Positions 3,803-64,000 of a stretch of 64,000 bases of DNA are shown in pieces (the stretch's first letter is position 1; each line of letters starts with the position of its first letter). The DNA is taken from assembly GCA_965113315.1 (NCBI GenBank), contig OZ220366.1. One strand, written 5' to 3'. Source of the DNA: Podarcis vaucheri (Eukaryota). The translations under genes were made by a program, and so were the position numbers. Under the pieces are notes generated by a model. That model was not told where the DNA came from and did not search any database. It saw only the letters and a program-made list of their open reading frames with translations.

Positions 3803-6102
3803 TGCCTGAGTACATACCTACCAAGTAGTAGGAAAAAGCTGTACTGTAATTGTTTTAACATGCTAAGGTGAATTGTTTGGAGTTCCACAACAGGAAGTGA
3901 AAACCATTTAGTTGCAAGCCCTTTCTTCTCAAAAAAGCTCAGTATTCCCAAGACACAAACCACAGCAATAAAAAAACACAAAGTGCATACATGGCCAAGA
4001 AGAGGGATATAAGATCCCAGAGTTTTCACATTACTATTGCTTTCTGGGAAGAATTTGCTTAACCTTCAAAACCCTTAGTGACTGACGCCTGCTGCGTGTC
4101 TCCCTGAGATGCTGATCTGTCAGCCAAGCATAATGTTTTGGTGAGGCTCTGAACAAAAGAGTAAATAATAAAATGAGAGAACAAAGAAAAAGAATGAACT
4201 AGGCAAGGACACAAAATGCATTTGGAATTAGATTTGGGGAAAGGTTTAACAAAAAATGCCTTTGCCCACACTGGATAGTGCCTTGCAAAACGCAGGCTCA
4301 CATTTTGCATACTAAGACAAAGTGTCACAGAACTTGTTGTTGATGGAACTGCCCACTATTATCACTGCAGCAAGAACTAAAAAACAACAATCCTGCCGCA
4401 TTGTAGTTTTCCTGTGGAGCCCAATAAAACACTTCCTTCCTCTCAGAATATATTCCCTTTCAGAATACTCCCAATAGGGCACTGGTGGGGAATGTCCAGC
4501 TCATGGGCCTAATTATGAGTGCCAGGCTGTTCCGGGCAAACCATGCACATGTTTCATCATATACAATGTCAGACATGAGAAAGTTCAAGCTGCAACTAAT
4601 AGGAAGAAGTATCAGATTTGTAAGTGTACTGCAACAGAGAAATGTGCCAAACTAAAGAAGTGCCAACTTTTTTTTGGATAAAAATTAATAACTGGAAGAA
4701 CACTTAAGAGTGTGCTCTTAATTTTTCCTTTGCAGCCACATGCTGAATTCAAGCCATGCCTGCAAAGAAACATTTTTCATATTCTTTTGCAGGTGTGATT
4801 TAAGTTCAGGCTGCATCTACAAAAGAATTCAAGCCACAGCTACCAAGGGAAAAAGTTCATTTGCAGGCCTAACCTGGATGTAAACCACACCAGCAAAGGA
4901 AGAACAGGAAATGCACTTAGAATACACTCCTAATTCTTCCTTTTTTAACAGAATCATGGTGACATCAGGTGACTGACACCTGTCAGTCTTACTCACATGC
5001 CAAAGTGACCCACTACAGGTGTAGAATTACAGAACTGCAGAGTTGGAAGGGACCACAAGAGTCACCACCTCGCTGAAGTTAAGGAGGTCTGGGTTCAGTC
5101 AGTGCCTGAACAGATGACAGCCCTCAAAACAACATTATACATCGCCTTTGGGTCCATGATAGAAAAAAGGCAGGATATACAGGTAAGCATATAGATAAAT
5201 AAATTGCTAAATCATGAAACCTTGTTTTGAAGTGAGCATTATTGTTCTAAAGTTAGCATTAAGTTGTCTAGATAGGATGGCACGGCAAATTGTGATTAGA
5301 CAAAACCTGGAAATTTCAGTGGGCTGGAGGATGAGCCTTTGGGCCTGCTCCCAATAAGCCATGGTTTGGCGAATCAATTCAGAAGATCTAAATTGGCCCA
5401 AGGAATGGTCTGAAAACAGGCGATGCAGCTGCTGTTCAGTACCTGGGCAGGAAATCATCTGCATACTTTACGTATGCCAGCTTGAGCTGCTGGAAGAATA
5501 TAATGAATGCTTAAATAGACTGAGGCACTGACACTGGTCAACTTTTCCCTGGATCCTCCCCTTGTTTTCCTGGTAAGGAACTTGCCTGCAACAGCTGCAC
5601 CACACACAGAAATGAAGAGGTGGTGTTTCGTCCTCACATCTGTTGAGCTTCTGCCTGCCCAGGAGTTGAACCCTACCTTTCCTAACCATATTTACCAACT
5701 CAATACACCCCTAAAACACACATACACACCCCTCCTCCTGAAATGCAGTCGACTAATAAGTTTTATATACCAGTCCTTCTCCACTGGCCCTTAACCCTTT
5801 GGGGAAGCTCCTCAGAAGCCCCTCCACACCCCCAGGTCCTCAGTTACCCGGATTCTTCCGCTTGTTTTGGCCCCCGCCCCACCTCCGGCCTTGCGAAAGG
5901 CAAGTCAGTGACGTCACACAAACACACCGGGGAAGGGCAGCGGGCTTCCTTCTCCTGTCCCCCCCCCAGCCCCACCTCCCACCCCGCGTTCCTCACGGCT
6001 AGGAGCGAAAGAGCAGCGGCGGGAGGAGGAGGCGGCGCCCGCCCTCCCGCGCTTGTTGTTTGGTTTGGCGCGGCGTGCAGGTGCCTCTCCGTCGTCACTC
6101 AC

Positions 6103-6208
6103 CGAAGTCCAGGAACTGCTTGATGGAGAGCGGCGACGGGGAGAAGCGGGAGTAGTACTCGATCTGTTTGGGGATGGGGCTCTTCAGGAGCGCCCCGCAC
6201 AGCCGCAT
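6103..6208 (-). CDS. PDK3: Pyruvate dehydrogenase kinase 3, first coding exon (gene continues beyond window start; intron 1 covers 1-6102)
   Basis: MRLCGALLKSPIPKQIEYYSRFSPSPLSIKQFLDF+G matches the PDK3 N-terminus. 106-nt coding exon ends at donor G|GTGAGT (6102). Kozak GCCATG. Lies downstream of ZFX on the same strand, as in human Xp22.11. Confidence 0.95.
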
Positions 6209-6300
6209 GGCGCTGCTGGGTCGGTCGGCCGGCCGGCAGGTCGGTGGGTGAGGGAGACGGAGAGGAGCAGGAAGGAGAGGGGAAGGCGCGTGCGCGCGCA

Positions 6301-6324
6301 CAGCAGCAGCAGCAGCAGCAGCAG
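6301..6324. repeat. (CAG)8 / (CTG)8 trinucleotide repeat upstream of the PDK3 ATG
   Basis: Read directly: cagcagcagcagcagcagcagcag. Confidence 0.95.
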
Positions 6325-8158
6325 CGCCTGCGGGGCCCCTGGACGAACCGGCCGAGCAACTGCCTGGCGGCGCGTGCGGAGACTCACGCACGCAAAACAC
6401 CGCGGGCGCGCGGGAGGGGGCGGGGAGGCGAAGGCGCTCGCAACTGTCACCGCGGCCCAGCAGCTCCTCGCTGCCGGCCTAGCGGAAGGCGGCGGTATCG
6501 GCCTCTTTGCCCTCCACACGACGGCCGCCCCCTCGTGTATCAAGGGGCCGGGCGCACCGCTGCAGCTCGACCCGGCCGGTATCCCCCGGCCCGGCAGCGA
6601 CGGCGAGCGCCCGCCTCCTGGCCTTACGCGGCCTTCTGACTGGGCGACGAGCAGCCAGCATTGCCGCCGCCGCTGCCGCCTTCCTTGGCCTTTCTCGGTC
6701 GCCCGAGTAAGCGCCGCCTGCCATCACCATGACGCCCAAAGGCATGCGCACGCGCCGATGGGCGCCGGTTGATTTCCGGGCCTACAGCTCGATTTGAAAG
6801 TGAGGAGACCGGGGCACGTGTGGTTTCAGGCACATAACACGGATCGCAGCCTGAGGGCAAGATGCCCTTCTGCTTTTCTTTATTCTCCAAGAGCTTGTCC
6901 TGCTTCTTCACCCACCACCACAAACAATGCTTAAGAGCAGGGATGAAGGATTTGTTGCCTTCCAGATCAGTCTTTCTCAACCTGGTGGTGGGGTGTCCCA
7001 CATGTTGTTGAACTACAACTCCCATCATCCATTGCCAGCAGGGGCAGCAGTCAGGGATGATGGTAGTCCAAACCTATGACCAGAACTGGAATCATCATGT
7101 ACACTTCGGAAACCATGATCTACGTCATATCACACACCTTCAGCTATCTTAAATATTACTATCCATTTCTGGACTGTCTTAAAATTTCCTTCCCTTGAGC
7201 CAATGTTTCGTAACAACCAACCCCTGATATTAAAAATGGAACAATTTCTCCTTAAGGGATACATTAGCCTGTGGTTTCTACAAGGATGCTGACCGGCCCA
7301 AGAGAAAATAACAAACATTAGAGGCATGGAAACAGGCAGAGAAGGAAAGCAAAAGGAATCTAGCTAAGTCAAAGATGATTCCACTCTTGTACACATCCAC
7401 CTGGTGTAAAACAGGCTTAAAGAAGAGAGGTGATGCATGGAACAATCTCGTGGGAGAAAGGCTTAACAATTTGGGCATCTACAAGATGCACAGTTATAAG
7501 AAAGAAGCTTCCTAGATCCATCCACCTTAAGGACAGGGGATGGACAGAAGGGACATGAAGTGCAAATTAACTCAAGTTCTGTAGCAAGGTGTATCAATAC
7601 AACTTTCCCTCCTCAGAATAGCAGGGTAGTCATGATGGGTCTCTGGCCAATGAGAACTGACAACCAGCTGACTAAGGTATCCATTGTGGGGAAAGGCAGT
7701 GGCACTTTCCTAGCAAACTCAGTCTAATTACTGATGAAAGATGCTTGCTGGAGGAAACCTTCAGGGGAAATTAATGGCTGAATAAGGATATACACCAAGG
7801 TTCTGGGGACTAATTAGGTATCTGCCTATTCACCTTGCTCTTGCTGCTGCTGTGGGAGGTCATTCAGCTGAAAACAATGTTGCCTCCTCTGTTGCTTCCA
7901 AGTACCCCAATGCGCACACAGTGAAGAATCGTTAAATGGTTCTGAGGCATGTGTAGAATTCCAGTGAAAATGAACTTCTTGGTAATACATGAAATCCATA
8001 GCTCATACAATCCCCAGAAGAAGCATTTGAGTCCTGCTGTGGGACCAACACGCAGCACGCAGCTTGTTTTCTTGCAGAAAGTTAGGCAGACAAACTGACA
8101 AGATCCATTTCCAAATATTTCAGTTCAGAAGAGTGATAAATACAAGCTTCTGATCTTC

Positions 8159-8470
8159 ATGGTGGGACTGATTGGGCTGCTGTTGCTGAGGACTTGGTCT
8201 GCAACAATGGATTTAACCTTGGGTGAAGCTTGGAGCCAATGGAAGATCACACATTCTAAAGAATACTCCCCAGAGGAAGAGGAACACCGGAGAATTGTGT
8301 GGGAGAACAACTGGAAAATGATTGAGCAACACAACCGTGAGACTGCGCAAGGGAAACACACCTACACAATGGGAATGAACCAATTTGCCGATTTGACTGA
8401 TGAAGAGTTTAATCAAAAAATGGTTAATAATAATAATAATAAAGTTATTACTTATACCCCACCCATCTGA
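8159..8470 (+). CDS. Intronless cathepsin L propeptide-only ORF (signal peptide + I29 inhibitor domain; CTLA-2-like). Functional retrogene or truncated processed pseudogene
   Basis: Hydrophobic leader MVGLIGLLLLRTWSA; WxxWK..H.K.Y; exact ERWNIN spacing (EEEHRRIVWENNWKMIEQHN); GxNxFxD (GMNQFAD); LTDEEF. No mature protease domain nearby. No introns where vertebrate CTSL genes have them. Confidence 0.75.
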   Translation: MVGLIGLLLLRTWSATMDLTLGEAWSQWKITHSKEYSPEEEEHRRIVWENNWKMIEQHNRETAQGKHTYTMGMNQFADLTDEEFNQKMVNNNNNKVITYTPPI

Positions 8471-26043: not shown

Positions 26044-26216
26044 TTACTTTAAAAAAATGTTGCCCTCCACACTGATCCTGCTGTTCTGTTTGTTTCCCTT
26101 AGTTTCCTGGTCTGAAACCACTGGAAGCTCCAGGTCATCGTTTCCTTTCCTGTAGACGACTCGTGAGATCAGAGTTATGAGAAACATTTCCATAATGAGT
26201 AGCTGTTGGTCCATAT
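26044..26216 (-). CDS. SLC51A-like: OSTalpha-like coding exon 8 (last): (Y)[27 protein letters not shown]...GNIFLK*
   Basis: Acceptor TTCGATTTTCCAG| at 26217; TAA at 26046-26044. Confidence 0.88.
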
Positions 26217-27364
26217 CTGGAAAATCGAAAGGGAACAAAAGAGCAAGAGGTTTAAGGACCAGGAATGAAAATAAGGTGGGCTCAAACTTGCTTTCATTAA
26301 ACTCTTGTAGTGGACAACTGTTGGAATGGGTAATGCTACGTGGAGCATCAGATGTCATGATCTCAATGACAGTTGGACTTTTACAGTGGCCCTGCAGAGG
26401 CGGAATACATAATTTACAGAGGTGGAATACATTATAAGTGAATATAGAAATGAACCCACTTTAGCCTGTCATAGAAACTGAAATCCAAGCAACTTACATG
26501 CTCCTCTTGCTGAAGAAGAAAGTGGAGGCACACAAGCAATTACCCCTTCCATAGCCAATATGTTGATGATGGTTGCCTGGAGCTGACTCAAAATGAGGGC
26601 AAACTACATAAACACACAGAAAAAGAAAATTGTAAAATTGTGAATGCGATTCAATAAAAACTATATACATTTTCCACCTTAAATTAAAATAAAGAGGTAA
26701 ATCCCCATGAGGGGGATGACACCACAGAAGGTTCTCTGTTTGGAAGTAGCATGAGGGGGAGGGTGGCGTACATTTAGGCTGATGTTGAAAGATGAATACT
26801 CATAGTGCATGTTTTCTCAAGGTGAAAGAACATAGTGCCCATGGAGAAGAATCCTGAAGGGTGAACTAGAGAATAGATGGCCCAAGAGAGGGGCAAGTTG
26901 CACATTCCTATATGTAATGTTTTGTTGTTTCTCCAGCCTTCCCCAATAGGGTGTCTTCCAGATGTCTTGGACCAAAGCATCTGGACGCTACCTGGTTGTA
27001 GAAAACTGCATTATGCCCTCAGCGTATTCCCACCTTAGTGGGAAGAATGTACTTGCACTTACCAAAATTTATGGACTTGATTCAAACTGTGAAGATTTGT
27101 ATTGAGTGGCAGAGAGGCAGCCCAGAAACTGCTATCTCCTGTGTCCACCATGTTATTGGGTGGGGCACAAGAGGAGGAGGCGTGGCTGCTTGCTATGGCG
27201 TTCACCTTGCAGTGGAAAACGGTAGGCTAGAAGGAGAACTAAAGTACCTTATAAGAGCACACTCAGCAATGGACTGCCCAGGCTTAAAAGCCAGCAGAGT
27301 CAGATCCATGGGGTGTGGATCAGTTTGGGATGCTACAGACAGTGTGTCAGGAGCCAATGAAACA

Positions 27365-27406
<42 letters not shown>

Positions 27407-30400
27407 TCTGTATGTGTGCGCGTGGGGGCACACATGCGCTTACATGAAGAGAAGTGAGGTTTTTTATTTATTGGTTACATTCCCCCACTTCCTCAGTCCT
27501 TCTTCCTAGTGGCTCAAGACAGCATGCATGGCTTTCCCGCTGCCTGTTTTATCATTCCAAGATTCTTGGGAAGTAATATACTGATTGCCTTAAAACCAGA
27601 TCACCCATAAAGTATTATAGTACAGTAGGAATCTGAACTCCTTCTCCCCAGTCCACCCCTTTACACCAGCTCTCTCCTTTGCATATTGGGGCAATTAAAA
27701 ATAAATTGTGGGTTGGGTCCAACTAAGTTGAATTTAGGTTCTATCAATGGGACAAATTAGCACCCCTACACACTCTGACATGGGAGTAGATCCCATTTAA
27801 CTTAATGGAGTTTACTCTGTTTGAAGTTGACATATATAGGAGAAACAGCACAAAATAAACTGTGGTGCTCTGAAACCATTTAGACAATCATATTTTTACC
27901 AGTACCTACCATGGTCTTTAGAAGTACGCCCTGGGATTTAGTCTTGTATCACAGGATATGTCTTTGTTCTACACCACTTCCTTCCATGCAGGGAAAAGGA
28001 ACTCGGTGTGCGCTGCATTTTTACCACCCAAATTTTTAGGAAGACTGAAAACTCTAAATATTGCTCAGTTCTCCATTGTCACCCAAAAATGTTGAAAGAA
28101 GCTATCACAAAGGAGTTAGCTACAAAGAAGACCTTTCATACTTCAAAGGCTTTAAGTAATAAAGTCTTTGATCTTGAATTCCTCTTTTAGGTTTGCAGCA
28201 CCTGACTATAGAGCTGTCTTCCAGAAGCATTTCAAATGAAGGCCTGCAATGTAGTCTTAACTATCTCACCTGATAAAGTGCAAATTTAGGGATAATCTTC
28301 TTGCAGTTAAGGAGAGCGCGGACTCGTTGGAACATGATTCCGATTGGCCACAGGGCAATGATAGTAAGGACACCTATGAAGCAGTTAATCCATATGGCAG
28401 CTCCGTTGGGAGATAACTGAAAAGGTACATTGAACAGATACACAGATTATATTCCACAGCAGGTCCTTTTCTGCTTCCAGAACAAACTTATTTGTATAAC
28501 TCATATAGACACTCAGCAGCGCCAAAAGCATCCACACCACCCTCAGAGCAGGCCTATTGAAATCAATACGTTCAAGTTGGTGGGGAAGGTTAAAAAACCT
28601 CTCCACGTCTTTCCCCAACACCAATTCCCTCCTCCCTGCTGCTATTTCTGGAGTAGGGAACCTTTTCCAGCAACCTTCTGGGGCTCACATATGAGTGGTG
28701 GGTGGGGTTGGGGCCAGGGAGCAAAGGTGGTTATGGCAACAAATACAAATTTTACCTTTGTAAAGCAGTTTTTACACATGCACCACTCTCTGTGCTCTGT
28801 TCAGACAAGCAAGAGGCTTTATCAGAGTTCAATTCCAGCCAAAACACAAGCAAGGCCTGTGAGGGGTATGGCTTGGGAGAGGGGGTGTGACTTAGGAGAG
28901 TTCCAAGGGCCAGAGAGAAGCTAGGAGGGCCACATTTGCCTCCTGGAGGTTTCCCCCTATTAAATGCCATCACACATGTAACATTGCCTACAGTAGTTTG
29001 GCTCTGTTCCATGCGTCTGCCAGTAACTAAGCAGGTCAACTAAAGACATGTTTGTTTCAATTAGCTTTTCCAGTGGAATGGAAAGGTCTCTGCCCTAGGT
29101 ATTTATTTTGAATTATTTAAAAACCTATATTTAGTTGGTTTTCTACTGTTATTAGAGCTTTTTAGTTCTTTTTATTCTATGTTTGTATTCTGTGTCATAG
29201 TATAGCAAGACCATGGTGATTTATGCCTACAGTACATTCTGACTGGTACTTTTTAGTTCAAAACAGTTTTAGGTGTACAGATATTTCTTATCATCCTCTG
29301 TTAAGTTTCAATAAATTCTTCAAACCTTTGCTTACATCAGAGGGACTGTAGTTTCCATTGGTCCAAAGTACTATTGATAGAAACATTAGCACAGGGCGGA
29401 GGAATGCAAACTGGAAAGTCCCCAGCTTCAGTAAAAATAGTGTTCGCCTGCCAAATAAAAAAAGGGGGAAGGAAAAATTCATAATCTTAAAGGAGATTGA
29501 GGCAGTAATCTTGATCCACTGGCACGTATTGGGCTTTTGCCTTGGACAATCTGAGTAGTAAATATCCCTACCCCACGCCAACCCCCCCCCCCATTACATC
29601 TTTCTTTCCTTCCTCTCTTTATTCAGATATCCAACCTCCTTCTCTTTCCACCTCAGACACTCTCATTAATGAAGGCAAGCTGCTATTTAATGTACTCTGT
29701 GCTATATTAATGAACTTTGGCTTAATATAATTGCTCAATTAATACAGCCATAATTGCATAATAATGATATAATTATAGTGGCAATTTTACTCCTGCAAAT
29801 AATTACAGAACTATAAACAGTACAAACGAGTGTACAAATGAGCTGGCAGATCACCCTCTTTTTGCTTTCTTGAAGAAGCAAAGGAACTGTTTGAGAACAT
29901 GCAAGCTTCAGTGACATCTCTACCCTCTGTCAATCTAAGGACCAAATAATATATAGAATCATAGAATTGTAGAGTTGGAAGGGACCCCGAATCTCATCTA
30001 GTCCAATCCCCTGCAATGCAGGAATCTCAACTAGATCAAGCATGACAGCTGGCCATCCAACCTCTGCTTAAAAACCTCCAAGGAAGGAGAGTCCACCACC
30101 TCTTGTGGGAGTCTGTTCCATTGTCAAACAGCTCATACTGTCAGAAACTTCTTACAATCAGAATGTTTAGTCTGAATCTCCTTTCTTGTAACTTGAAGCC
30201 ATTGATTCTCATCCTACCCTCTGGAGCAGGAGAAAACAAGCTTGCTCCATTATCCATTTGACAGCTGTTTAGCTATTTGAAGATGGCTATCATATCTCTT
30301 CTCAGTCTCCTCTAGGCTAAACATACCCAGCTACCTCAGAGACAGTTTTAGGGTAGTGTAACCAGTTTGGCCACACTGGGTGCCGCACTGCAAGGGGTGC

Positions 30401-33400
30401 CACAACAATACTGTAGAGCGGAGCACCGAATTTTAGCGTTACATAGAGCGCCTCTGAAATTTGAGAGCTCAAAGTCCACCACTGCTCACAAGGCTTGGTT
30501 TCTGTCATCAGATCTCCCATGGATTATTCATATTTTAATAATCCTATGGCGCAAAGATGGTGAATCAGAGTAAGGAAGTGGTTTTAAAAGAGGGATTTGG
30601 AACCTCAGGCCTTGGGGCCTAAATGTGGTCCTCCAGTTCTTTCTACCTAGTGCTAGGAACTCTTCCTTGGCCACCCTGCTCACCGGTCCCACGTTACACC
30701 CTGGGTATTTCTGCCTCACTGAAATGTGTTCTTGAACTCTGATGGTGCCTCTCGTTGGTCTGGGTGGAGGATAGAGAGGGGTGTGTGCAGAAACTAGCCT
30801 GCTGTACAAAGGTACAATTTACATTAATTGCCACGCCCACATTTGACTCTGGCTCCACCCACCGCTGGCATGTGGCCCTCAGAAGGTTGTCCAGAAGGGA
30901 ATGCTGCCCTTGCACTGAAGCTGACTTTCCACCTATTTCCCACATCTTTTTTCACAGTCTAGATCCTCCATTCTAAGCAAGGCTTTTGCGTGTGGCCCAT
31001 ATGGAGCCAATAAGTTAGCACGGTCACATGTTAACTCATGCTGACTAAAAACATGGAGAGGAAACAGAAGTAATCAGTGAGGGAAGGATAGGTTGCCTTT
31101 CTGTCTATTGCCGCCCCCGCCCCCCCGGTTCAACTAACTTATTGCAAACGTCTGTTCTTGTTTTAGGACCAAGAGAGTGGAGCTTGCAGTCCATCTACTC
31201 CAAACCCATGCTCAGTGCAGAGAATCCAGAGCTAAAGCATCTGCAAAAGATGGCTGTCCAATCTCTGCATCCTAGAAGAATTCCAAGGCAGCACTTGGTC
31301 CAGATATGCAGGTATATTTGTCTTTGAGCTTCCTTTAAGTATATGATTGAAACCAAAACACTGCCCAGTGGGGTATGTTACCTTGGGTTCCAGGATGGAA
31401 GGAAGGTGGTACAGTGGTGCCTCGCAAGACGAAAAGAATCCGTTCTGTGATTCTCTTTGTCTAGCGGTTTTTTCGTCTTGCGAAGCAAGCCCATTGACGG
31501 ATTAGCGGATTAGCGCTATTAGCGCTATTAGCGCTATTAGCGGCTTTTAGCGGCTTATCTGCTGATCGGATCAGCTGATAAGCGGCTTAGCGGCTTAGAA
31601 AAAGGGGGGGAGGGGAAAAAACCAGCAGGAACTCGCAAGACATTGTCGTCTTGCAAAGCAAGCCCATAGGAAATTCGTTTTGCGAAGCACCTCCAAAATG
31701 GAAAACTCTTTCGTCTAGCGAGTTTTCTGTCTTGTGAGGCATTCGTCTTGCGGGGCACCACTGTATGTCAGTGTAAGAAAACGGATGTGAATGTGCTGAC
31801 TTTAAACCACACCCTTTCCCTTTAATAATAACAATACTCTGATTATACCAAAGCCTTTCCAACTCAAATGTTTTGCAGATTTCCCTCCCTTCACCTTCAG
31901 AACTGGTAGGTTTTATAGAGAAACTCACCTATTGATGCGTATATGTGGGAGGCAAAGGCAACAGCAGCAGCAGGGGCCTGTGCTTATCTTGAAGTGGTCG
32001 TTCTCAAAGTGCCTGAGGAATAGTTTTTGACCCCCACATTCTTTAATCATCATGAGCAGGAACTTGTGGATGACGATAGCAAAAAATCTATGGGAAGGAG
32101 GGAAAGGCACCTACATGTTAAGATATACAGGGCTGCTCTCCTGTCTATGCATTTGTCACACATGACTGTCATGGCTGCAGGCTTGAGCTCAGAAGAGGAA
32201 GAGCTGGCTGAGCCCAGGTCTGCTGTTCTGCTAGCTGAGGAATTGGAGAAGGCTGCTGACACTGGTGGATCGGAGCCTGAGCCTGAACCCTCACAGGGGC
32301 TGTCCCCCAGTTTTGACTTGCCAGGGTAATTGAGTGCTTCTCATAGTAGCATAGCTGCTCAACAGGGCACCACTCAGGAGGTTACAGTACAGACACAGAG
32401 AGTTGGCCCTTTAAGACCCACAGTCTCCAGGCCTAAAGGATGGAGCCTGGAAGAATTGGACTCATAAGACCTCAGTTCACCTCCAGCCTTTGCTGGTGCA
32501 AGTTGTTGTTGTTCATTTGGAGCTATCCATGGTGCAGTAACTACTGGGATGCCTTGAGTTGCCATGCCCTGAAAAACCTACCGGTACCTTGTTTTTGAAA
32601 GAGTGAGACAACTTTATTTTAGGAGAAATAGCGGGGGGGGGGGGGATTTAAATATTCCCTTCCTCAGGGCCACTGCATCAGTCTAATTTGCATCCCCCAC
32701 AGCTGCTTTGGGGTTGCTGTTGTTTTCTTTTTTTAGAAAAAAGAACAAAAAGCCAAAGGATGCAAACTATTTTCTCTTCCTTTACAGTATGTGTTACAGC
32801 TGACAAGCCTCATCACACAGATCTCCAACTTGGGTTATTTTCCTATATTGGTGTACTTCTTTTCAGCAGTGTTTTTTTTTTTTTTTGGTTAAAAAAAAGA
32901 AACTGCAATGTGCCATTTAGAAAAGACTGGTGAAATGCCACTCACAGGTCAGAATCTTGCTCTAAAGAATACGTTTGAGAAATCAAAGGGGCTCTGCTGT
33001 TTCAATCCAGCTGCCAGTCAAAGGAGTCTGTGGACTTTTAAAGTGCACTAACTAAAGAATACCCCCCCACACACACACGTTTAACATTCCATTCTTTTAT
33101 CTAGTTGGTGCCATTATTAGTTTCTACACTATCATCAAAGTCTGAGTTAACAGTATACTCTCCTCACGCAAAAAAACCCAACAACTGATAAAGGATTCTA
33201 TTTTAACAAAAGGGCTGTTCCTACAAATACAAGATAACTATTTGTTTCCTTAATGCTGGAAACATTTTGCCTAAAAATGGAAACAGATAGGTAAATGCAT
33301 ATCTAAAAAGATAGAGAAAACATACACTGCTGCAGTAAAATCTGTAAACATTGTTGAGCGAGGAATCCACATCCCAATACATGACGTAGTGGCAATCACC

Positions 33401-34664
33401 TGGAAAGAGAGAGGAACATTCAGGGCAAAAACTATTTATTAACTAAATAGATTTGGGGGCAGGGGGCGGTGGAATCTATTATCTTCTAAATGAATATCCC
33501 TTCAATTCAGATTTAGACACAATTCAATATTATCTAGTCTCGAGTTAGGCATCAGATCAGAACATCAGATTTGAGCTCTTTCTAAAGAACTTTTCCTTCA
33601 GAAAACATCAGATGGAGAAGCCCTACCTAGGGAAGTCCAATATCCAAGTGGCATCATAGGAAGTGGCATTGTAAGTTATCATACTATTTGTCCAAGTAGG
33701 CCAGTATTGTCTATTTTGATTGGCAGCAGGAATCCAGAGTCATTGGCTATTCATTGTTTTAACTCAGGAGTGGGAAGCCTGTTTCAGCCTGAGGTCCACC
33801 TTCCCATGTGCACAGACTTCTGGGTGTTACATGCCAGTGTTGGGTGTGGTAAAAGGGGATGTGGCCAGACACACCATTCTCTATTTTCCATCCATCCAGG
33901 CAAGCAAGCAAGAGATATTAACACACTTCGAGCACTTTCCAGCCACATGAAATCACTGAAAGAGAGCTGAGAGCAACGCCAGTGAGAGATATTGCCTGGG
34001 TGTGTGTCGCTTGGGAAAATTCTTAACAGCTGGGTAGAGAGGGCTGGAGGGCCACATTTGGCCCCTGGGTCTGATGGTTCCCCACTCCAGTTTTAGCTGA
34101 AGATGCCAGGGATTGGACCTGAGAATTTCTGCATGCAAATAATGTATGCTGCTGCCTGTCCCTAAAAGGAAGGCATTGCCAGAGACCCAGTAATAGGGTC
34201 ATCTCTGGATGCCCTTACGTGAGTACTAAGAGGGTTTTCCATGCTTAGGTAAAGGTAAAGGTAACCCTTCCCGTACGGGCCAATCATGTCCGACTCTGGG
34301 GTTGCACGCCCATCTCGCTTAAGAGGCCGGGGGCCAGCGCTGTCCGAAGACACTTCCGGGTCACGTTATCTCCAATACATACTCATGGTGCCAGTAGGAT
34401 TTCCTTTGCTGACGGAAAATCTGCATCTGGCGAGCCAGCGCAGCACACGGAAACGTCGTTTACTTTCCCGCTAGTAAGCAGTCCCTATTTATCTACTTGC
34501 ACCCGGGGATGCTTTCGAACTGCTAGGTTGGCAGGCACTGGGACCGAGCAACGGGAGCGCACCCTGCTGCGGGGATTCGAACCGCCGACCTGACGATCGG
34601 CAAGTCCTAGGTGCTGAGGTTTTACCCACAGTGCCACTCGCGTCTCTTTTCCATGCGTAGTGTA

Positions 34665-34698
<34 letters not shown>

Positions 34699-35461
34699 TT
34701 ATATCCCACCCATCTGACCGGGTTTCCCTAGCCACTCTGGGTGGCTTACAACATATATAAAAACACAACAGAACATTAAATATTGAAAAAGAAAATATCC
34801 TATACAAGCAACAAACAAACCAAGAAATCAATAGAAAACAACACAACAACAACAACAACCAGCTTGCTGTTATACTCAAATTAAAATAACCACCAACCCC
34901 AACTAAACATATAACCCACACCAACCCAACAAAAACAAAACAGAGGAACCAAAATTAGAACTCTAAAACATTTTAAAACATTTTAGCCAGTTGCTAAACT
35001 ACCATAATTTATTTATTCAACTTACTGGAGCAGCTGCATTTATCCAAATAAAAATGGATCTTTTGGAGGGTGGGATTTTGCGGTAAATATAGAAGACTTC
35101 CTCCACAAATACCAGGTCAGCAGTCAGTGTCATTAAAGTCAGGATAGCAAAGAGCAATATTCCTGTCAAATCAAGGCCTGAAAGGATAAAGAGTTGTGGC
35201 AAATTTAAACAACAAGCTGCAGCACATAAAGAAATGGAATACTTCAGCCTAGTAAAAGCAAGCAAGCATGCTTAATATAAGGTAAGTATATCCTTAATTC
35301 ACAATCCAGGGCCTTAGAATTCATATTGGTATGGTTACAAGTTAACTGTACCCTTAGTAGACCGATTGCTAGTTAATTACTTGGATCAGTCAGTTTCATC
35401 ACTGGGACTTAAGCTTGAGCAGAAAAAAATAGTTTGGGATTTTGAAACTGAGACACTGTGG

Positions 35462-35528
<67 letters not shown>

Positions 35529-36503
35529 ATGTTTCTAGTTGGTCTTAGCTGAAACTGGGGATAAGGGCTTGTTTGGCATCCAAACTTCTGAACAGTCATA
35601 TCTTGGATCCCGAACGCCTTGGTAGTCGAACGTTTTGACTCCTGAGCACCACAAACCCGGAAGTGAGCGTTCTGGTTTGTAAACATTCTTTGGAACCTGA
35701 GAGTCTGGCGGAGCTTCCAGGGCTTCTGATTGGCTGCAGGAGCCTCCTGCAACCAATCAGAAGCTGCACTTTGGTTTCCGAATGCTTTGGAAGTCGAACA
35801 TAGTTCCAGAACAGATTCCGTTCGACTTCCAAGGTACGGCTGTATTACGTATTTTTTTCTCCTGGTAGGGCTCATTTCCACTTTCAGAGCCCCACCTCTA
35901 AGGAAGGGAAAAACAGTTGAGGCATTGCTGTTACAGGGTGAAAAGGATTTGGAAACCCATATTACATACTCCATTATCAGTATGTATTAATACAAGAATG
36001 TGGGAAGAGGCTAAACAATCAAGTTCCATAAAGGAAGAACAAGGAAGTATTGGTAGTGGCAAAACACTGCAGCAGTGCAGCAATGCGTTGTGGCGTAGGT
36101 AGAACTTAGGTCTTCACTCTAAAGCTACAGAATGAGTACATAACTAGGGGTAGGACCGCACAGCAACCACAGAGCACTACAAAAGCAGCCACGGCCGTCT
36201 TAGGCCCACATTTAATAAACAAGCGCGGTTCCCCCACATTTATCACATGGTACATTGGCTGCCTGAATTCACTCCCCCTTTCTTTTACTTGAGCTTTTCT
36301 GGCCAAAAATGTTCACATTAATGAAGCACTATACCTATTTGTTTTTGTTTTTTAAGTGCTTAAAATCACAAACACAGTTTAGTAATGCCTATAATTATTA
36401 ATTAGTATTTTTTTAAAAAAATAAAGGAATAAAATTTGGTATAATCAGGAATAGTAGACTATGTACCTGTTTGGGTGCATGTGCAAAATAATTCAGTAAC
36501 AAG

Positions 36504-36535
<32 letters not shown>

Positions 36536-38405
36536 TGTACACTCTCCTCCCCACCCCTTAAGCAATAAACTGCTATCAAAGAGAATCATAGTTCTCTTGT
36601 ATTGCTAGTTAGCTGTGTCAATTACATCTAGAATCAGGAACAATTGTTCTACACAGTCATAATTATATCTGGGATTTGCTGTATGATATCTGTAAATTCA
36701 TTGATGCAAATTCTTATCCATGGCAAGCTTTTGCATCAATCGAATCATACCTTCTTCTTTCATTGCTAGGGGATTTATATTTTTCCATTTCGCTGCAGTC
36801 TGGAACTTTGCCACCACAAAAATATGAGCCATTGGCTCTCTCCTAATCTGTGATATCTCTTCCTAGTCAGTAACATTCATCAAGATGGGTTATAGAACCA
36901 AAGGGCAATCCCACATCTTTTTAACACGATGCTTTGTGAATGACCTCTAAAAAAAAGAAAAAAAGAATGCTTTGCCACTGATTAATTGGCAGTAAACTGT
37001 GACTGTGATCCCAGATAAACAGACCCAGTGCTGTAACTACGGGGACTGATTCCAGGGAAAATGCAGCCCTTCCAGACACCACCCCAGTGTTGCTCACAGC
37101 ATTGCAGAACCTAATAAGTTCAGCTCATTAAAAAATAAATATGTGGGCGAGTCTAAGTGCAGGTGCCCTGCACTGAGGCTAGTTGTGCCGTTAGTGTCTA
37201 TATACAGCTACACATTCATTCCTGTACTACTGTTATATAATAGTTCAAGAAGTTTTAAACTTTCCCCTCCCCTTCCCCTTGCCATTTTCTGTGTCCACAT
37301 GGCCCCATACTTGAGAACAGCAGGAAAGCTTTGACACTTAATTTCTAGCAGGTGGAACTGCTCATACAATGCAAAGGCAGAGGCACTGTGGGAAGTGCCT
37401 GTTTTGAGCCACACACCTAAAGTTCCCCATTTCTTATCAGTAGGTATTGCTCATTCCCATGAGAACAGTGACTAATAAACAGAGTTATCACACATATTGC
37501 CCATTCTGCATTTGTTTTATACGGCAGCACCTGCACTCTGGAACTCCTTGCCGATTGAAATCAATCAGGCACCTTCACTGTACTCTTTTTTGTGCCTGCT
37601 AAAAATATTCCTGTTTAGAGAGCCAGTGTGGTGTAATGGTTAAGAGCCTTTTATCTGACTTGAGACTTATTGCAAACCTTTTAACCTTTTATCTGACTTG
37701 AGATGCCTTGCTCACAGCTTACTCCAACCCGTAATCTGGGGAACTGGGTTCGCGTCTCCGCTCCTCCACATGCAGCTGCTGGGTGACCTTGGGCCAGTCA
37801 CACTTCTCTGAAGTCTCTCAGCCCCACTCACCTCACAGAGTGTTTGTTGTGGGGGAGGAAGGGAAAGGAGATTGTGAGCCACTTTGAGACTCCTTTGGGT
37901 GGTGATAAAACGGGATATCAAATCCAAACTCTTCTTAAACTAGCTTACCCAGATGCTTAGAAAGTTGAGGTGATTTTAATCTGTTTTAGTATTTTAACTT
38001 TTGTTTTATGTTTTAAAGTATGGTTGTAATTTTTATTTTATTTTATCGTTTTATCATTTTGTAAATTGCTTTGAGTGGGTTTTTTTTTACAATCAAGCGG
38101 TATATACATTTTATAAAATAAATAATATTATCATAATTATCAACAACAATCATATATGTTTGGAATTCTTCCTGCACAAGCCCTGCTGAAAAGGAGCATC
38201 TTTCTGTTTTTATGGTTTAAACTCTTTTTAATTTTAAAGTTACAGGTGAAAGGTATTTGCCATTCAGAGTCATTATGCATTCATCAACACTAGATTACGT
38301 TTGCCTTTAAGCCTTTCTGATGAACATTAATGTGTCCTCCTCATTTCAAATGCCATTTAAAAAGTAGGTCAGTCCAGAACAACAGTGAAAGAAAAAGCTT
38401 CTCAT

Positions 38406-38442
<37 letters not shown>

Positions 38443-38601
38443 GATTAATCTGGTAAAAAAAACCCCAAAAGGATTTATTCACAAAGACTTATGTTGTTCT
38501 CAACAGTGAATAAACTTACTTTCTAATATTACTTGTGAGTATGGACCTTCATTTGCAGAACAGACAGGATCCAATGTCCCATTATTTCCCGCTTCTTCCA
38601 T
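26044..38601 (-). CDS. SLC51A-like: Organic solute transporter subunit alpha-like gene (SLC51A paralog): 8 coding exons, 1005 nt, 334 aa
   Basis: Exons 38601-38520, 35177-35026, 33399-33326, 32087-31929, 29447-29336, 28416-28270, 26603-26498, 26216-26044. All GT-AG and phase-compatible, with no internal stop. OSTalpha motifs: [73 protein letters not shown]. Confidence 0.93.
26498..26603 (-). CDS. SLC51A-like: OSTalpha-like coding exon 7: [35 protein letters not shown]
   Basis: TTTATGTAG| acceptor, |GTAAGT donor; 106 nt. Confidence 0.92.
27365..27422. repeat. (GT)n/(GC)n alternating purine-pyrimidine tract
   Basis: tgtgtg...cgcgcgtgtg read directly; intronic. Confidence 0.9.
28270..28416 (-). 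CDS. SLC51A-like: OSTalpha-like coding exon 6: [49 protein letters not shown]
   Basis: CCTTTTCAG| acceptor, CAG|GTGAGA donor; 147 nt. Confidence 0.93.
29336..29447 (-). CDS. SLC51A-like: OSTalpha-like coding exon 5: [37 protein letters not shown]
   Basis: TTTTATTTGGCAG| acceptor, |GTAAGC donor; 112 nt. Confidence 0.93.
29953..30335 (-). mobile_element. CR1 LINE 3' end
   Basis: ATAGAATCATAGAAT tail and body similar to the reverse complement of the CR1 at 11037-11516. Confidence 0.85.
31412..31763. mobile_element. Tc1/mariner-type MITE with internal ATTAGCGCT minisatellite
   Basis: TIRs CAGTGGTGCCTCGCAAGACGAA / TTCGTCTTGCGGGGCACCACTG; TA on both sides. Confidence 0.85.
31929..32087 (-). CDS. 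SLC51A-like: OSTalpha-like coding exon 4: [20 protein letters not shown]...[18 protein letters not shown]
   Basis: CCTTCCCATAG| acceptor, AG|GTGAGT donor; 159 nt; signature cysteine cluster. Confidence 0.95.
33326..33399 (-). CDS. SLC51A-like: OSTalpha-like coding exon 3: [25 protein letters not shown]
   Basis: CTCTCTCTTTCCAG| acceptor, |GTATGT donor; 74 nt. Confidence 0.93.
34247..34646 (-). mobile_element. Sauria SINE with internal ~60-bp replacement
   Basis: AGGTAAAGGTAAAGG tail, B-box; TSD TTTTCCATGC(T/G)TAG. Confidence 0.85.
35026..35177 (-). CDS. SLC51A-like: OSTalpha-like coding exon 2: [50 protein letters not shown]
   Basis: TTTATCCTTTCAG| acceptor, |GTAAGT donor; 152 nt; first TM segment. 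Confidence 0.92.
35463..35525. repeat. Compound (GT)n(GA)n microsatellite
   Basis: Read directly. Confidence 0.95.
35593..35842. mobile_element. Tc1/mariner-type MITE
   Basis: Imperfect TIRs CAGTCATATCTTGGA / TCCAAGGTACGGCTG-TA; internal CTGATTGG...CCAATCAG inverted repeat. Confidence 0.7.
36620..36920 (-). mobile_element. Degenerate L1 ORF2 C-terminal fragment
   Basis: MWDCPLV ... [16 protein letters not shown] resembles the L1 C-terminal HxxWxCP and AKxxIAxxWK motifs. Confidence 0.45.
37621..37936 (+). mobile_element. tRNA-derived SINE (Squam3-like) nested in an L2-like 3' fragment (~37520-38120)
   Basis: AGCCAGTGTGGTGTAATGGTTAAGAG head, ATCAAATCCAAACTCTTCTT tail; flanks read as one continuous L2-like 3' end. 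Confidence 0.8.
38520..38601 (-). CDS. SLC51A-like: OSTalpha-like coding exon 1: [27 protein letters not shown]
   Basis: AAAATGG Kozak context, A|GTAAGT phase-1 donor matching the phase-1 acceptor of exon 2; C...P....L spacing as in OSTalpha N-termini. Confidence 0.85.
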
Positions 38602-55824: not shown

Positions 55825-57011
55825 TCACGGCAGCCCAATGTCTTTATGATGCCGCATAATGTGCTGGTTCTTCTCTGAAGGTCTTCTGAAGCCTTTTTTG
55901 CAGAACTCACAACGGTGAGGGTAGTCTTTTGTATGAATGGAAATAACATGCCGTTTGAAACCTGAGGCATCTGTAGTGCTATACTCACAGAACTCACACT
56001 GATAAACTTTTCTACCACTGTGTGTTTTCATGTGTTTTTTGAGTTCCATTTGCAGCTTGAAGCCCTTCTTACATCTCTTGCACCTGAACGGAAGATCCTT
56101 TGTGTGAACTGAGAGAATATGGCGACTTAGAACAAACGGATCTGCAATCTTAAAGTCACAATGTCTACACTGGTGCAATTTTTTGCCTTTGTGCACTGCA
56201 ACATGTTTTTTCAGTTCTGAGGGCCTGTGAAAGCCTTTGTCACACATGTCACACTTATGGGGGTAATCCTTTGTGTGAACGGAAATTATGTGTCGCTTTA
56301 AATCACTCGAGTTTGAACTTTTGTGGTCACAGTGCAGACACTGATGTGTTTTGCTTTCTTGATGCATAATGATGTGCTGTTGCAGCTCTTTGGTATCTGA
56401 AAATATCTGAAAACAAATGTCACATTTGAAGGGCATTTCCTTACTGTGTCTAGTCTTTACGTGAGTTTTCAGGTTGGAAGAGTCAGCCGATCTATACTCA
56501 CAATATTGGCACTGGTAGGGCTTTTCACCGGTGTGGATTCGCATGTGTTTCTTGAGCTCTGACGGATGCCGAAATCCTTTGCCACATTCCACACAAATGT
56601 GTGGAAAGTTCTTGCTGTGCACAGCCAGAAGGTGACGATTCAGTAATCCCTGCTCTGCTGTCTCATACTCGCAGAATTTGCACTTGTGCATTTTGTTTGC
56701 TGCCTTGTCCCTGTGCACCATCTTGTGTGTAAACAAAGCTCCTGCATGAGAGAAACTTTTCCCACATTCGTCACATTCAATTAGCTTCTCGGTCTTTGTA
56801 GTAAGCTTGTGGCTCTCTAGATGGTTATGCAAACTTAACTTTTTGTTTGTAGTGTAATCGCAATCAGTACATCGATATTTTTTCTTAGCAAGAAGGTGCT
56901 CCGGGTGGTTTTTCATGTGCCTTTTCAGGAAGCCTCTAGATTTAAACTTCTTCCCACAAATCATACAGGGGTAGACTGTCAAAGGATGGCCATCGGGCCC
57001 AATTATTATTG
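55825..57011 (-). CDS. ZFX: ZFX last coding exon: 13 C2H2 zinc fingers
   Basis: TTTTATTTTACAG| acceptor; (A)[31 protein letters not shown]...[22 protein letters not shown], near-identical to the ZFX/ZFY finger domain. Confidence 0.97.
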
Positions 57012-57859
57012 CTGTAAAATAAAAGCAAAACCCAGATCATGAAAATGGCACTGCTTAAACAGAAAAGAAATATGCTGATATGTGTATTAACAGCTATGTA
57101 AGTTGAAGTTATGCACTTCAAAATCTTAATCATTTCAGTGACACAGTCAAGCACATACTTATTAGTGCAACCCTATATATGTCTGAGTTAACAAGGCATA
57201 TTCCCAGATAAGTAGGTAAAGGATTGCTGTCCCACTCACTGAAATCCATAGGATTTAAATATTGGCTGGCAATATTACCTCTGTTAAATTAAATTAGCCA
57301 CAATAATGTGTCAGAACTAAAGCAAAATCATTCAACACAAATGGGGGAAGACTTGCAGCACTTCAGTATTTGGTAGCAATGTCAAGTGCTAACACATCCT
57401 TTAATTAAGCAAATTAAACCTGCATAAAGGAATACCTTGACATGTCAGTAACTGCAGAACCCAAGATCTCTTAAAGGTGCCTTGTAATAATAGGAGTCTT
57501 TGCAGTGGATGAATCAGGTTTGTCAGGTTTGAGGACAACTGTTTCCAAAAGAGTCCACCAGTACAGGAATTTCTAATTTTAAAACTGAAGATAACTATTT
57601 GTTCTCTGTTGCTTTGTATGGCTCTCAGATAAGTGAGTAAGCTACTAGAAATGTTAATATTAACTATAATCCAAAATAACAGTTGCAAACAGATAGCATG
57701 AGATAAGAATTATATATAATCATTGTGCAATCAAAACAAATATGAGAAGCAAGTCAATCCAGACATAGAATACATGGAGCTTGATGAAATGTTTTATTAT
57801 GTATTTTCATTTCATATTTTTTTGTTGTGAACCATCCTGTGATCTTTGAATGGTGGCAT

Positions 57860-59980: not shown

Positions 59981-60121
59981 CTGTTTGATATTGTCTGGAT
60001 TCCAATCTCCTCCTTTTCTTTGGTTTTTGTTTTGCTAGCCTTCCAAGACCAGCAGACTCATCTATGTGTAAGAGAGCACTAGCTGTTCCATTTCGGTTTT
60101 CAACTGCATCTGTGTTATTAC
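59981..60121 (-). CDS. ZFX: ZFX coding exon with NLS: GNNTDAVENRNGTASALLHIDESAGLGRLAKQKPKKRRRLESRQYQT
   Basis: TTCCATTAG| acceptor, CAG|GTAGGT donor; 141 nt. Confidence 0.96.
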
Positions 60122-60536
60122 CTAATGGAAGATTGAATGTTACATATCATCAGCACTCTAAGGAATATTCAAAATACAGAATCTATACATGGTAATAAAA
60201 TACTAAGTTAGTAAATGGTTGTTCTGTGCCTTTTTGCAGTCAACCTGGGCACTGAATGAAGTCAGATTCACATTCAAATAGAAACCTTTGGATGCTGCTC
60301 CACACAGTGAGCCTCTTGCTACACTTGTTCGTGACTCATACTATGGATTTCATCACCCTATCACAAACCAACATTGTTGGATAATAAAAAGATGCCAAAA
60401 GCAAACATTACCCATAAACTGCTCACGACCCAGCAGCCGCCATGTGGCTGCTTGTTTGCACAAAATAGGAGTGGGAGCCAATTTCATTTGGCATGAGCTA
60501 ATACTACAGGGAAGTGTCTTTTGATTTACAACATAC

Positions 60537-60671
60537 CATAAGCTGCTGCCCAAGCTATCGGCATAAAGCTTTTAATATCATTCTCATCAATTTGCTGTTC
60601 GTGAACAGCTGCTGCGTCTTCCTCTCCTACAATTACCTCCATATATACCTCATCAGCAATTTCTGCAACAT
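60537..60671 (-). CDS. ZFX: ZFX coding exon: (N)VAEIADEVYMEVIVGEEDAAAVHEQQIDENDIKSFMPIAWAAAY
   Basis: TTCTCTTAG| acceptor, G|GTATGT donor; 135 nt. Confidence 0.96.
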
Positions 60672-60754
60672 CTAAGAGAAGAAAAAACAATATAATACAA
60701 ATTTTGTGTCATTTTAAACAAATTCTTAACCCTAAATAAAGGTCAAATACTTAC

Positions 60755-60898
60755 TTAAATCTTCATCTTCATGCTGGGAATCATTTACTGTCATATAAAC
60801 CATTTTTTCCCTTGGAATGCGAACACTGCTATTTTGATTCATTAATGTGTCTCCATTGTCATTTTCAGATTCACTTTCCACAATATCTACTGTGCCTC
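60755..60898 (-). CDS. ZFX: ZFX coding exon: GGTVDIVESESEND...RIPREKMVYMTVNDSQHEDEDL
   Basis: CCCCCACCCAG| acceptor, |GTAAGT donor; 144 nt. Confidence 0.96.
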
Positions 60899-61313
60899 CT
60901 GGGTGGGGGAGGAAAAGTTGGTCAAAGTATTTTGTAAAAGCATCTTTCTACTAAATTATGGTTGAAATATAAGCAATAGAAAATAATCTACACTTTCCCC
61001 ACACGACATCTGAAAGAAGCCCGAGTCAAATAAAAGGAGATACTATGAAAGGTTAAGACTCAGCAACTAATTTCCTGGAGATACGTTGAGAAGAACAAGG
61101 GATAGTGGGCCTAAACCTTAACTTCCACTTTCTATTGCTACCAGCCAACATGTCAGAAAGGCCAAATTCTCCACCATTTTTATTTCTAGTTTGGCAACTA
61201 GAGGGAAAGGAGGAGTCTCATGATAGCTCTCAAAAGCACAGCTTTTGTCCTTCGACCTCCAATTACTGATGTTTAGATTAAGTTTAAAAATAAAATAAAA
61301 TAGAATGCTGTAC

Positions 61314-61463
61314 CTAAGTCATCTTCCCCTGGATCAGCTTTGAAAATGTACACCTTGATGACTTCTGGGCAAATGCCATCCATTTTACAAGGATCATTTT
61401 CTGACACAGTTTTTCTTGTCAGGTCAACAGAATCATCAGTTTCTGCCTTGACAGCATCATCCA
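61314..61463 (-). CDS. ZFX: ZFX coding exon: (L)DDAVKAETDD...DGICPEVIKVYIFKADPGEDDL
   Basis: TTTTTCTCTGTAG| acceptor, AG|GTACAG donor; 150 nt. Confidence 0.95.
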
Positions 61464-63771: not shown

Positions 63772-64000
63772 AGGAAATCATAAGGTAGTCTTCACAGTTG
63801 CCCTTGTCATTATCATGTTCCACAGGTATTCCACTGGCATCAATTACAGCTTCAGAGGCACAATCTGCTACCAAAACTTCAGAAACTACATCTTCTCCCA
63901 GAGAACCTGTGGCAATTTCTGCTTCTACAACATTACTATGATCATGAACAACATGTTCCAATTGTCCAACATCAGGTACGTGCATTGATGCACTTGTGAG
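63772..64000 (-). CDS. ZFX: ZFX acidic-domain exon (partial; begins beyond window end): ...VVSEVLVADCASEAVIDASGIPVEHDNDKGNCEDYLMIS
   Basis: Conserved ZFX acidic-domain motifs; donor T|GTAAGC at 63771. Confidence 0.95.

Follow-up and report, generated by a model that had tools for sequence, protein, structure and literature searches.

A 64,000-nucleotide stretch of DNA from the lizard Podarcis vaucheri (contig OZ220366.1 of assembly GCA_965113315.1; hereafter the window) contains an intact, spliced gene for a paralog of the organic solute transporter subunit alpha (OSTα, encoded in human by SLC51A). In trees of the family its product belongs to a clade, here called B, that is separate from clade A, to which the mammalian and sauropsid SLC51A proteins belong. 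The gene is almost certainly an ancient OSTα paralog, and its origin lies very probably in the early vertebrate genome duplications. Taken as a whole, the best explanation, which we hold to be likely, is an intact genome-duplication paralog whose product may well work as an exporter paired with the OSTβ subunit (SLC51B).

Structure and splicing of the window gene

The gene consists of eight minus-strand exons and seven introns, all GT-AG, and its exons join into a single 334-amino-acid (aa) frame with one terminal stop. The exon lengths and places, the splice sites and the size of the product are those given in the initial annotation of the window, made from the sequence alone. For exon 4 there are two candidate windows bounded by AG and GT, and the frame stays open only with 32087-31929. 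The joined translation carries [12 protein letters not shown]. Residues below are compared with human OSTα, and P0001 is the 'OST alpha-like' protein of Podarcis muralis.

38520..38601, minus strand: OSTα clade-B coding exon 1, 82 nt, with the ATG; N-glycosylation sequon at N7; match to P0001 residues 1-29
35026..35177, minus strand: coding exon 2, 152 nt, AG/GT bounded
33326..33399, minus strand: coding exon 3, 74 nt; D98 corresponds to human gate residue E116; joined to exon 4 in sequencing run X10
31929..32087, minus strand: coding exon 4, 159 nt; cysteine-rich loop [13 protein letters not shown]142-C148
29336..29447, minus strand: coding exon 5, 112 nt; R173 corresponds to human K191 and P191 to P209
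28270..28416, minus strand: coding exon 6, 147 nt; W216 corresponds to W234, Q223 to R241, R226 to R244 and Q242 to Q260
26498..26603, minus strand: coding exon 7, 106 nt
26044..26216, minus strand: coding exon 8, 173 nt, through the stop codon

The window protein is 99.1% identical to P0001 over 332 aa. The Pfam domain Solute_trans_a (PF03619) was matched by four of seven exon translations, one of them above the cut-off, and is present in all full-length orthologs; a search of the ESM Atlas returned nothing but the same OSTα family. Records of close relatives are already named 'OSTα-like', as the initial annotation had guessed they might be.

Exons 3-6 are probably spliced as predicted, on the evidence of contigs that are probably derived from RNA. 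In a comparison with sequencing runs over window positions 27500-33500, which span these exons, exons 6, 5 and 4 are joined intron-free in single contigs of runs X1, X5 and X10, and the X10 contig additionally joins exon 3. The junctions agree with the predicted exon boundaries to within one ambiguous base. The three runs come from three studies and two organisms; their RNA status is a guess, and none of the listed runs containing this DNA is recorded as RNA. Weighing against this support, run X23, which consists of raw RNA reads, gave no depth over the exons when about 12% of its reads were compared with the same interval.

A canonical SLC51A elsewhere in the genome

Searches with PF03619 and P0001 found three OSTα genes in the lizard genome, namely the window gene on contig C18 and one gene each on contigs C19 and C39. 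The C19 gene is the canonical, PCYT1A-linked SLC51A, a copy that the initial annotation had proposed to look for. Its protein is 63% identical to human OSTα, and the internal exons (155, 74, 159, 112, 147 and 106 nt) correspond in length and phase to those of the window gene. It adjoins a plus-strand PCYT1 gene tail-to-tail, about 12 kb apart, with an exon nearly identical to CCTα (109.9 bits). On C18 a plus-strand PCYT1 gene likewise converges on the window gene, about 75 kb from its stop and with PDK3 between the two, and its exon is less CCTα-like (94 bits to CCTα). The neighbours of the window gene are PDK3 and a PCYT1B-type gene, and not PCYT1A as for an SLC51A ortholog.

These results bear directly on whether the window gene could be a relocated ordinary SLC51A ortholog or a young lizard copy. 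Such a reading might be drawn from the clade-B records of chicken, alligator and Anolis, which are plainly named 'organic solute transporter subunit alpha'. However, the canonical copy lies by PCYT1A and is 63% identical to the human protein versus 37.6% for the window protein, and platypus and echidna each have both an A and a B protein. Furthermore, forcing the window protein into a clade with amniote SLC51A, mammalian and sauropsid together, changed the tree by -202 log-likelihood units and was rejected in the approximately unbiased (AU) test (p-AU 2e-74). We give this reading practically no chance, and an ordinary moved ortholog was refuted by the C19 copy together with the AU test. The initial annotation had named one-to-one grouping with mammalian SLC51A and the lack of a PCYT1A-linked copy as signs of simple translocation; neither was found.

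Phylogeny and probable origin in early vertebrates

Exon queries with the three lizard genes returned all 101 of 101 matching rows for the window gene, the best 120 of 226 for the C39 gene and the best 120 of 191 for the C19 gene. A profile search over all representatives was used for the best 150 of 3130 rows, ten of which were then named and added: lungfish and axolotl A proteins, elephant shark, sawfish and arowana B proteins, and lamprey, hagfish and tunicate rows. A careful tree was built from 37 chosen rows, 33 of them non-outgroup (29 named vertebrates and 4 unnamed), with the tunicate Styela and three unnamed rows as outgroup. The 33 rows separate from this outgroup at 99/96, and support is 97/96 for clade B, 100/100 for clade A and 100/98 for a further clade, D.

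Clade B holds shark, sawfish, arowana, lungfish, amphibian, sauropsid and monotreme proteins. The lungfish has members of all four clades that we distinguish (A P0584, B P0389, C P0179, D P0379). The split falls after the tunicates and ahead of the jawed-vertebrate radiation, as would be expected from the two rounds of early vertebrate genome duplication (1R and 2R), with Styela outside, sharks within B, and lungfish with A, B and D. The pair of paralogs described in the initial annotation stands as regards paralogy, and clades C and D amend it. Clade C shows 26-29% identity; in a FastTree of 104 rows it joins unnamed, presumably invertebrate rows (support 96), so that it is probably older than vertebrates.

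A first tree had suggested coelacanth, sturgeon, bichir and arowana proteins and one lungfish protein as orthologs of the window gene. This placement was rejected, and these proteins form the separate clade D. A lobe-finned clade was rejected by the AU test (p 0.0016), and this result together with the second lungfish protein shows that D is distinct from B. The members of D that were seen (among them P0379, P0100, P0095, P0097, P0101 and P0386) all come from lungfish, coelacanth, sturgeon, paddlefish, bichirs and osteoglossomorphs.

A genome-duplication origin fits the PCYT1B-side linkage of the window gene, the convergent PCYT1 orientation that it shares with the C19 pair, and SOXB1 matches on C18, C19 and C42. 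The sox1/2/3 genes are described as 2R ohnologs in an excerpt of PMC8244163. Together with the tree, these observations support the ohnolog reading put forward in the initial annotation. The host contigs C18 and C19 share two paralog families, PCYT1 and SOXB1, and only these two.

Several results weigh against this reading or limit its detail. No amphioxus row is among the named tree members, and the tree was built without zebrafish and skate sequences. With clade C as root, B and D group at 95/93. With invertebrate roots, A and B group at 29/76 and the B+D grouping is not rejected (p 0.47). Lamprey and hagfish rows fall in the A/B/D polytomy. Since the order of A, B and D varies with the root, no timing at 1R as opposed to 2R can be assigned.

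The unsettled branching order is also one of the points that would favour a different origin of the A/B pair, by local duplication of a PCYT1-OSTα block in early vertebrates. At micro scale just one flanking pair, PCYT1, is common to the two loci, and no OSTα remnant lies within 160 kb of the ZFX paralog on C42. On the other hand, both host contigs also bear SOXB1 paralogs, and three vertebrate clades arose in quick succession after the tunicate split, as two doublings would give. We consider a local duplication highly improbable and retain the genome duplications as the very probable origin of clade B. A fourth OSTα copy near the C42 gene, which is ZNF711-like, was rejected as a candidate: a profile that recovered six exons of the gene on C39 detected none in 160 kb, and no OSTα locus on C42 came up when the genome was searched with PF03619, with P0001 and with a clade-D protein.

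Taxonomic range and probable loss in therians

The named members of clade B belong to cartilaginous fish, arowana, lungfish, caecilians, salamanders, tuatara, lizards, turtles, crocodilians, birds, platypus and echidna. Among the 99 named of the 101 protein matches to the window gene, four rows are monotreme and none is from a marsupial, placental, frog or snake. With regard to sensitivity, 25 of the 48 query words occur in the platypus and lungfish B proteins, and the search also recovered clade-D proteins that have 10-13 of them. The same word-limited search overlooked elephant-shark B, in which 15 of the 48 words are present, and this weakens the therian absence. The human interval between ZFX and PDK3 is not known to hold an SLC51 gene. 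Judging from these protein matches, clade B was very probably lost in the ancestor of therian mammals. The initial annotation had the gene kept in sauropsids and lost in the human lineage; the former holds, but the range is wider, and since clade B spans sharks to monotremes, the loss is therian at latest.

The chicken ortholog is E1BTD2 (P0367), which is 76% identical to the window protein. An excerpt of PMC4592991 places its gene on GGA1 between EIF2S3 and PCYT1B and calls it uncharacterized and a positional candidate for a meat-pH quantitative trait locus. The list for that locus in the same excerpt includes F129I in E1BTD2; if the numbering matches, this column is F in 135 of 136 clade-B rows.

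The slc51a gene of fishes

Clade B takes in the arowana protein recorded as 'SLC51 member A' as well as the elephant-shark and sawfish proteins recorded as 'OST alpha', and seven unnamed rows group with the arowana protein. Additionally, an excerpt of PMC13662582 gives slc51a and pdk3 as the genes flanking zdhhc20b in croaker, grouper and zebrafish. On the basis of the arowana and shark placement and this neighbourhood, zebrafish and other teleost slc51a very likely belongs to clade B and is not the ortholog of human SLC51A. The unnamed fragment P0530, at the base of clade A, cautions against over-reading the fish names, as some fish may keep A. Identity to human OSTα is 37-38% for the shark and sawfish B proteins and 43% for lungfish A; thus the founder skate Ostα, reported at 41% in an excerpt of PMC4924846, could be A or B. 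The initial annotation spoke of a second export system. Two such genes do exist in the lizard, but clade B is probably not second everywhere, as teleost slc51a seems to belong to it.

In zebrafish slc51a marks ileal cells, the ileocytes, and its expression falls in fxr mutants (PMC8302129, in excerpt). A tentative scenario, which we put forward as possible and no more, is that early jawed vertebrates relied on clade B, which perhaps includes the founder skate Ostα, for ileal bile-salt export, and that A gained R241 in tetrapods and took over, after which therians lost B. Lizards, birds and platypus, which run both genes, would then show the handover in progress.

Predicted fold and pocket residues

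An AlphaFold2 model of P0001, the 99% identical ortholog, has a predicted local distance difference test score (pLDDT) of 79.5, the input alignment having included clade-A rows. This prediction matches the seven-transmembrane fold of human OSTα (9ljg) with a TM-score of 0.83, a root-mean-square deviation of 2.8 and an E-value of 4e-20, and a structure search with the model gave no other fold below E 0.001.

According to an excerpt of PMC13346981, a research highlight on two structure papers, human OSTα/β is a dimer of αβ pairs with a palmitoylated cysteine loop, C161 lying on W234. It describes a lateral groove with R241, R244 and Q260, a gate formed by P209 and E116, and K191 in a tunnel; mutation of R241 to alanine cuts taurocholate uptake. 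The window protein keeps six of the seven human cysteines (C142-146 and C148) and the partner W216. Its pocket is identical at R226 (R244), Q242 (Q260) and P191 (P209) and conservatively changed at R173 (K191) and D98 (E116). Q223 replaces R241, with an Arg at the next position.

Residue counts were made over 136 clade-B rows, which are redundant and each at least 270 aa, and 112 clade-A rows. In clade B, C161 is conserved in 136 rows and W234 in 133, R244 is R in 130, K191 is R in 129, Q260 is kept in 125, and E116 is D or E in 132. Two sites run counter to a fully conserved pocket. Site 241 is R in only 29 of the 136 clade-B rows (Q in 91) versus 110 of the 112 clade-A rows, and site 209 is L in 99 and P in 32 of the clade-B rows. 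Site 241 is also non-R in lamprey, shark, clade D and lungfish A, so that R241 looks like a tetrapod gain within clade A. In each of three matched species pairs, identity is higher for clade B than for A (lizard-bird 85 vs 68%, lizard-turtle 87 vs 74%, lizard-echidna 72 vs 64%). Furthermore, 18 columns are at least 90% conserved yet different between A and B, in a B set that then still included D rows.

Proposed function

Based on the predicted fold and the pocket sites that are kept, the constraint on clade B, and an excerpt of PMC4924846 in which human and skate OST subunits complement each other, the clade-B protein is predicted to export bile salts or steroid conjugates in a β-dependent and sodium-independent manner, a proposal we regard as probable. 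It would pair with the small OSTβ subunit for basolateral export by facilitated diffusion, presumably sharing the one intron-bearing SLC51B that was found. By analogy with human OSTα, a lateral groove on transmembrane helices TM5-TM6 would be framed by the palmitoylated cysteine loop. R226 and Q242 would hold the sulfate or sulfonate of the substrate, which R173 would then move through a tunnel whose gate is formed by P191 and D98. Given the change from human R241 to Q223, the preference for anions may differ.

A search for inverted-repeat (IR-1)-like FXR sites in the window weighs against this proposal in that 24 were found versus 29.6 expected, no excess, and none near the start codon had fewer than two mismatches to the IR-1 consensus.

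It is also conceivable that the gene has the same origin but that amniote clade B moved to other cargo or tissues, such as steroid conjugates or neutral sterols in kidney, adrenal, gonad or brain, leaving the ileal job to clade A. The variation at R241, the frequent L at P209 and the 18 columns that differ between A and B (again with D rows counted in B) are consistent with such a shift. So is the long retention of both genes, over hundreds of millions of years, in lizards, birds and monotremes, with B the more constrained. Yet the non-R state at 241 in lamprey, shark, D and lungfish A looks ancestral rather than specific to B, and the probable teleost ortholog is, in the excerpt cited above, ileal and Fxr-dependent. 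Moreover, retention of clade B does not follow bile-salt chemistry as given in an excerpt of PMC2886068, where bile salts are more than 95% C24 in monotremes and C24 in most birds. We consider the shift to other cargo unlikely and favour export of bile salts or steroid conjugates with OSTβ. Specialisation on C27 bile salts, considered as a simple explanation, was rejected, as monotremes and birds are largely C24 yet keep B.

Neighbouring genes and other loci

The upstream and downstream neighbours of the window gene are as follows.

55828..57036, minus strand: last, zinc-finger exon of ZFX (upstream neighbour), 77% identical to the C42 paralog
~59985-64000, minus strand: ZFX activation-domain exons, Zfx_Zfy_act with the best score in the genome
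6103..6208, minus strand: PDK3 coding exon 1 (downstream neighbour, approximate ends); best PDB match PDK isozyme 3, E 3.9e-10

The distance to ZFX, upstream, is about 17 kb and that to PDK3, downstream, about 20 kb; all three genes are on the minus strand, and PDK3 exon 1 sits within a CpG island at 6001-7000. Both flanks had been named in the initial annotation, and the Zfx_Zfy_act score and the PDB match bear it out. The name ZFX over ZNF711 rests on this score, chicken synteny and motifs, and a PDB search with the zinc-finger exon did not name ZFX among its matches. ZNF711-like genes are found twice, on C42 (21.636-21.648 Mb) and on C41 (11.114-11.160 Mb), the latter with much longer introns; the two are possibly Z and W copies.

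At 8159-8470 on the plus strand of the window, a 103-aa frame has a hydrophobic start and a cathepsin propeptide inhibitor domain (PF08246, E 1.2e-22). A protease domain was looked for after this frame and none was found. The frame is intronless where cathepsin-like genes on C40 have separate exons, and it stands head-to-head with the PDK3 start about 2 kb away. It may be a truncated retrocopy or a stand-alone propeptide inhibitor.

The clade-C gene (G000:C39:6,252,390-6,262,126) adjoins PORCN and has no intron between exons 6 and 7, the other intron positions being shared. Its product has a long C-terminal tail and an altered pocket (K241, I260, Y234). A bichir gene model fuses clade C to PORCN, and no bird or mammal is present among the best 120 of 226 matching rows.

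A search for SLC51B gave three matches, among them one intron-bearing gene (L083, G000:C36:25.976 Mb) and one intronless copy; a second recorded locus is L082 (G000:C37:44.263 Mb). The intronless copy, with an open frame of 198 codons, is nearly identical to the C36 gene; it appears to be a young retrocopy and could supply a second β subunit. At G000:C19:3,880,288-3,885,278, on the minus strand and directly upstream of the PCYT1A catalytic exons, two frames of 349 and 1343 codons resemble by eye the gag and pol of a long terminal repeat (LTR) retroelement.

Significance and comparison with known systems

The usual teaching is that the SLC51 transporter consists of a single α and a single β subunit and is essential and non-redundant in mammals. 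Outside the therians, vertebrates have two to four α genes; in this lizard three are present, alongside the one intron-bearing β gene that was found. Should fish slc51a belong to clade B, the gene used in zebrafish to model SLC51A deficiency is a paralog whose protein shares about 37% identity with the human one, and 'OSTα' as used in bird and reptile annotations covers two genes, given that clade-B proteins of chicken, alligator and Anolis bear the plain name. Natural variants at R241 and P209, together with the human cryo-electron microscopy structures, offer a direct route to what sets substrate choice. The gene is already in databases as 'OSTα-like', and a retained, differentially lost duplicate is an ordinary kind of event. 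A search of open PMC and bioRxiv texts, with subscription journals and gene-tree databases outside its scope, gave no account of vertebrate OSTα paralogs, of therian loss or of the fish naming, and OSTα paralogy is not discussed in the available excerpts of PMC13651202, PMC7011509, PMC13207980, PMC11342244 and PMC5942847.

Within the wider family, TMEM184A/B/C share Solute_trans_a (PF03619) with the window protein. Three stronger PF03619 loci in the lizard genome are presumably these genes, and the probable TMEM184 loci were not matched as exon series by the window-gene ortholog. Clade C, the group of zebrafish si:dkey-16n15.6, and clade D share both the family and the cysteine loop. Chicken E1BTD2 and the 'OST alpha-like' proteins of lizards, turtles, crocodilians, birds, monotremes, caecilians and salamanders are orthologs that have been annotated only automatically, and the chicken gene shares the EIF2S3-PCYT1B interval. 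As for teleost slc51a and the cartilaginous-fish 'OST alpha', the literature, in the excerpts available, equates slc51a with the OSTα bile transporter and does not comment on its orthology. Human OSTα (SLC51A; Q86UW1; 9ljg, 9unv, 9uo2) resembles the window protein in predicted fold, cysteine loop, W234, R244, Q260 and P209. In contrast, the two proteins are 37.6% identical, C167 is L and R241 is Q in the lizard, and the window gene is linked to PDK3 and PCYT1B rather than to PCYT1A, the two clades having been apart since before sharks and bony fish split.

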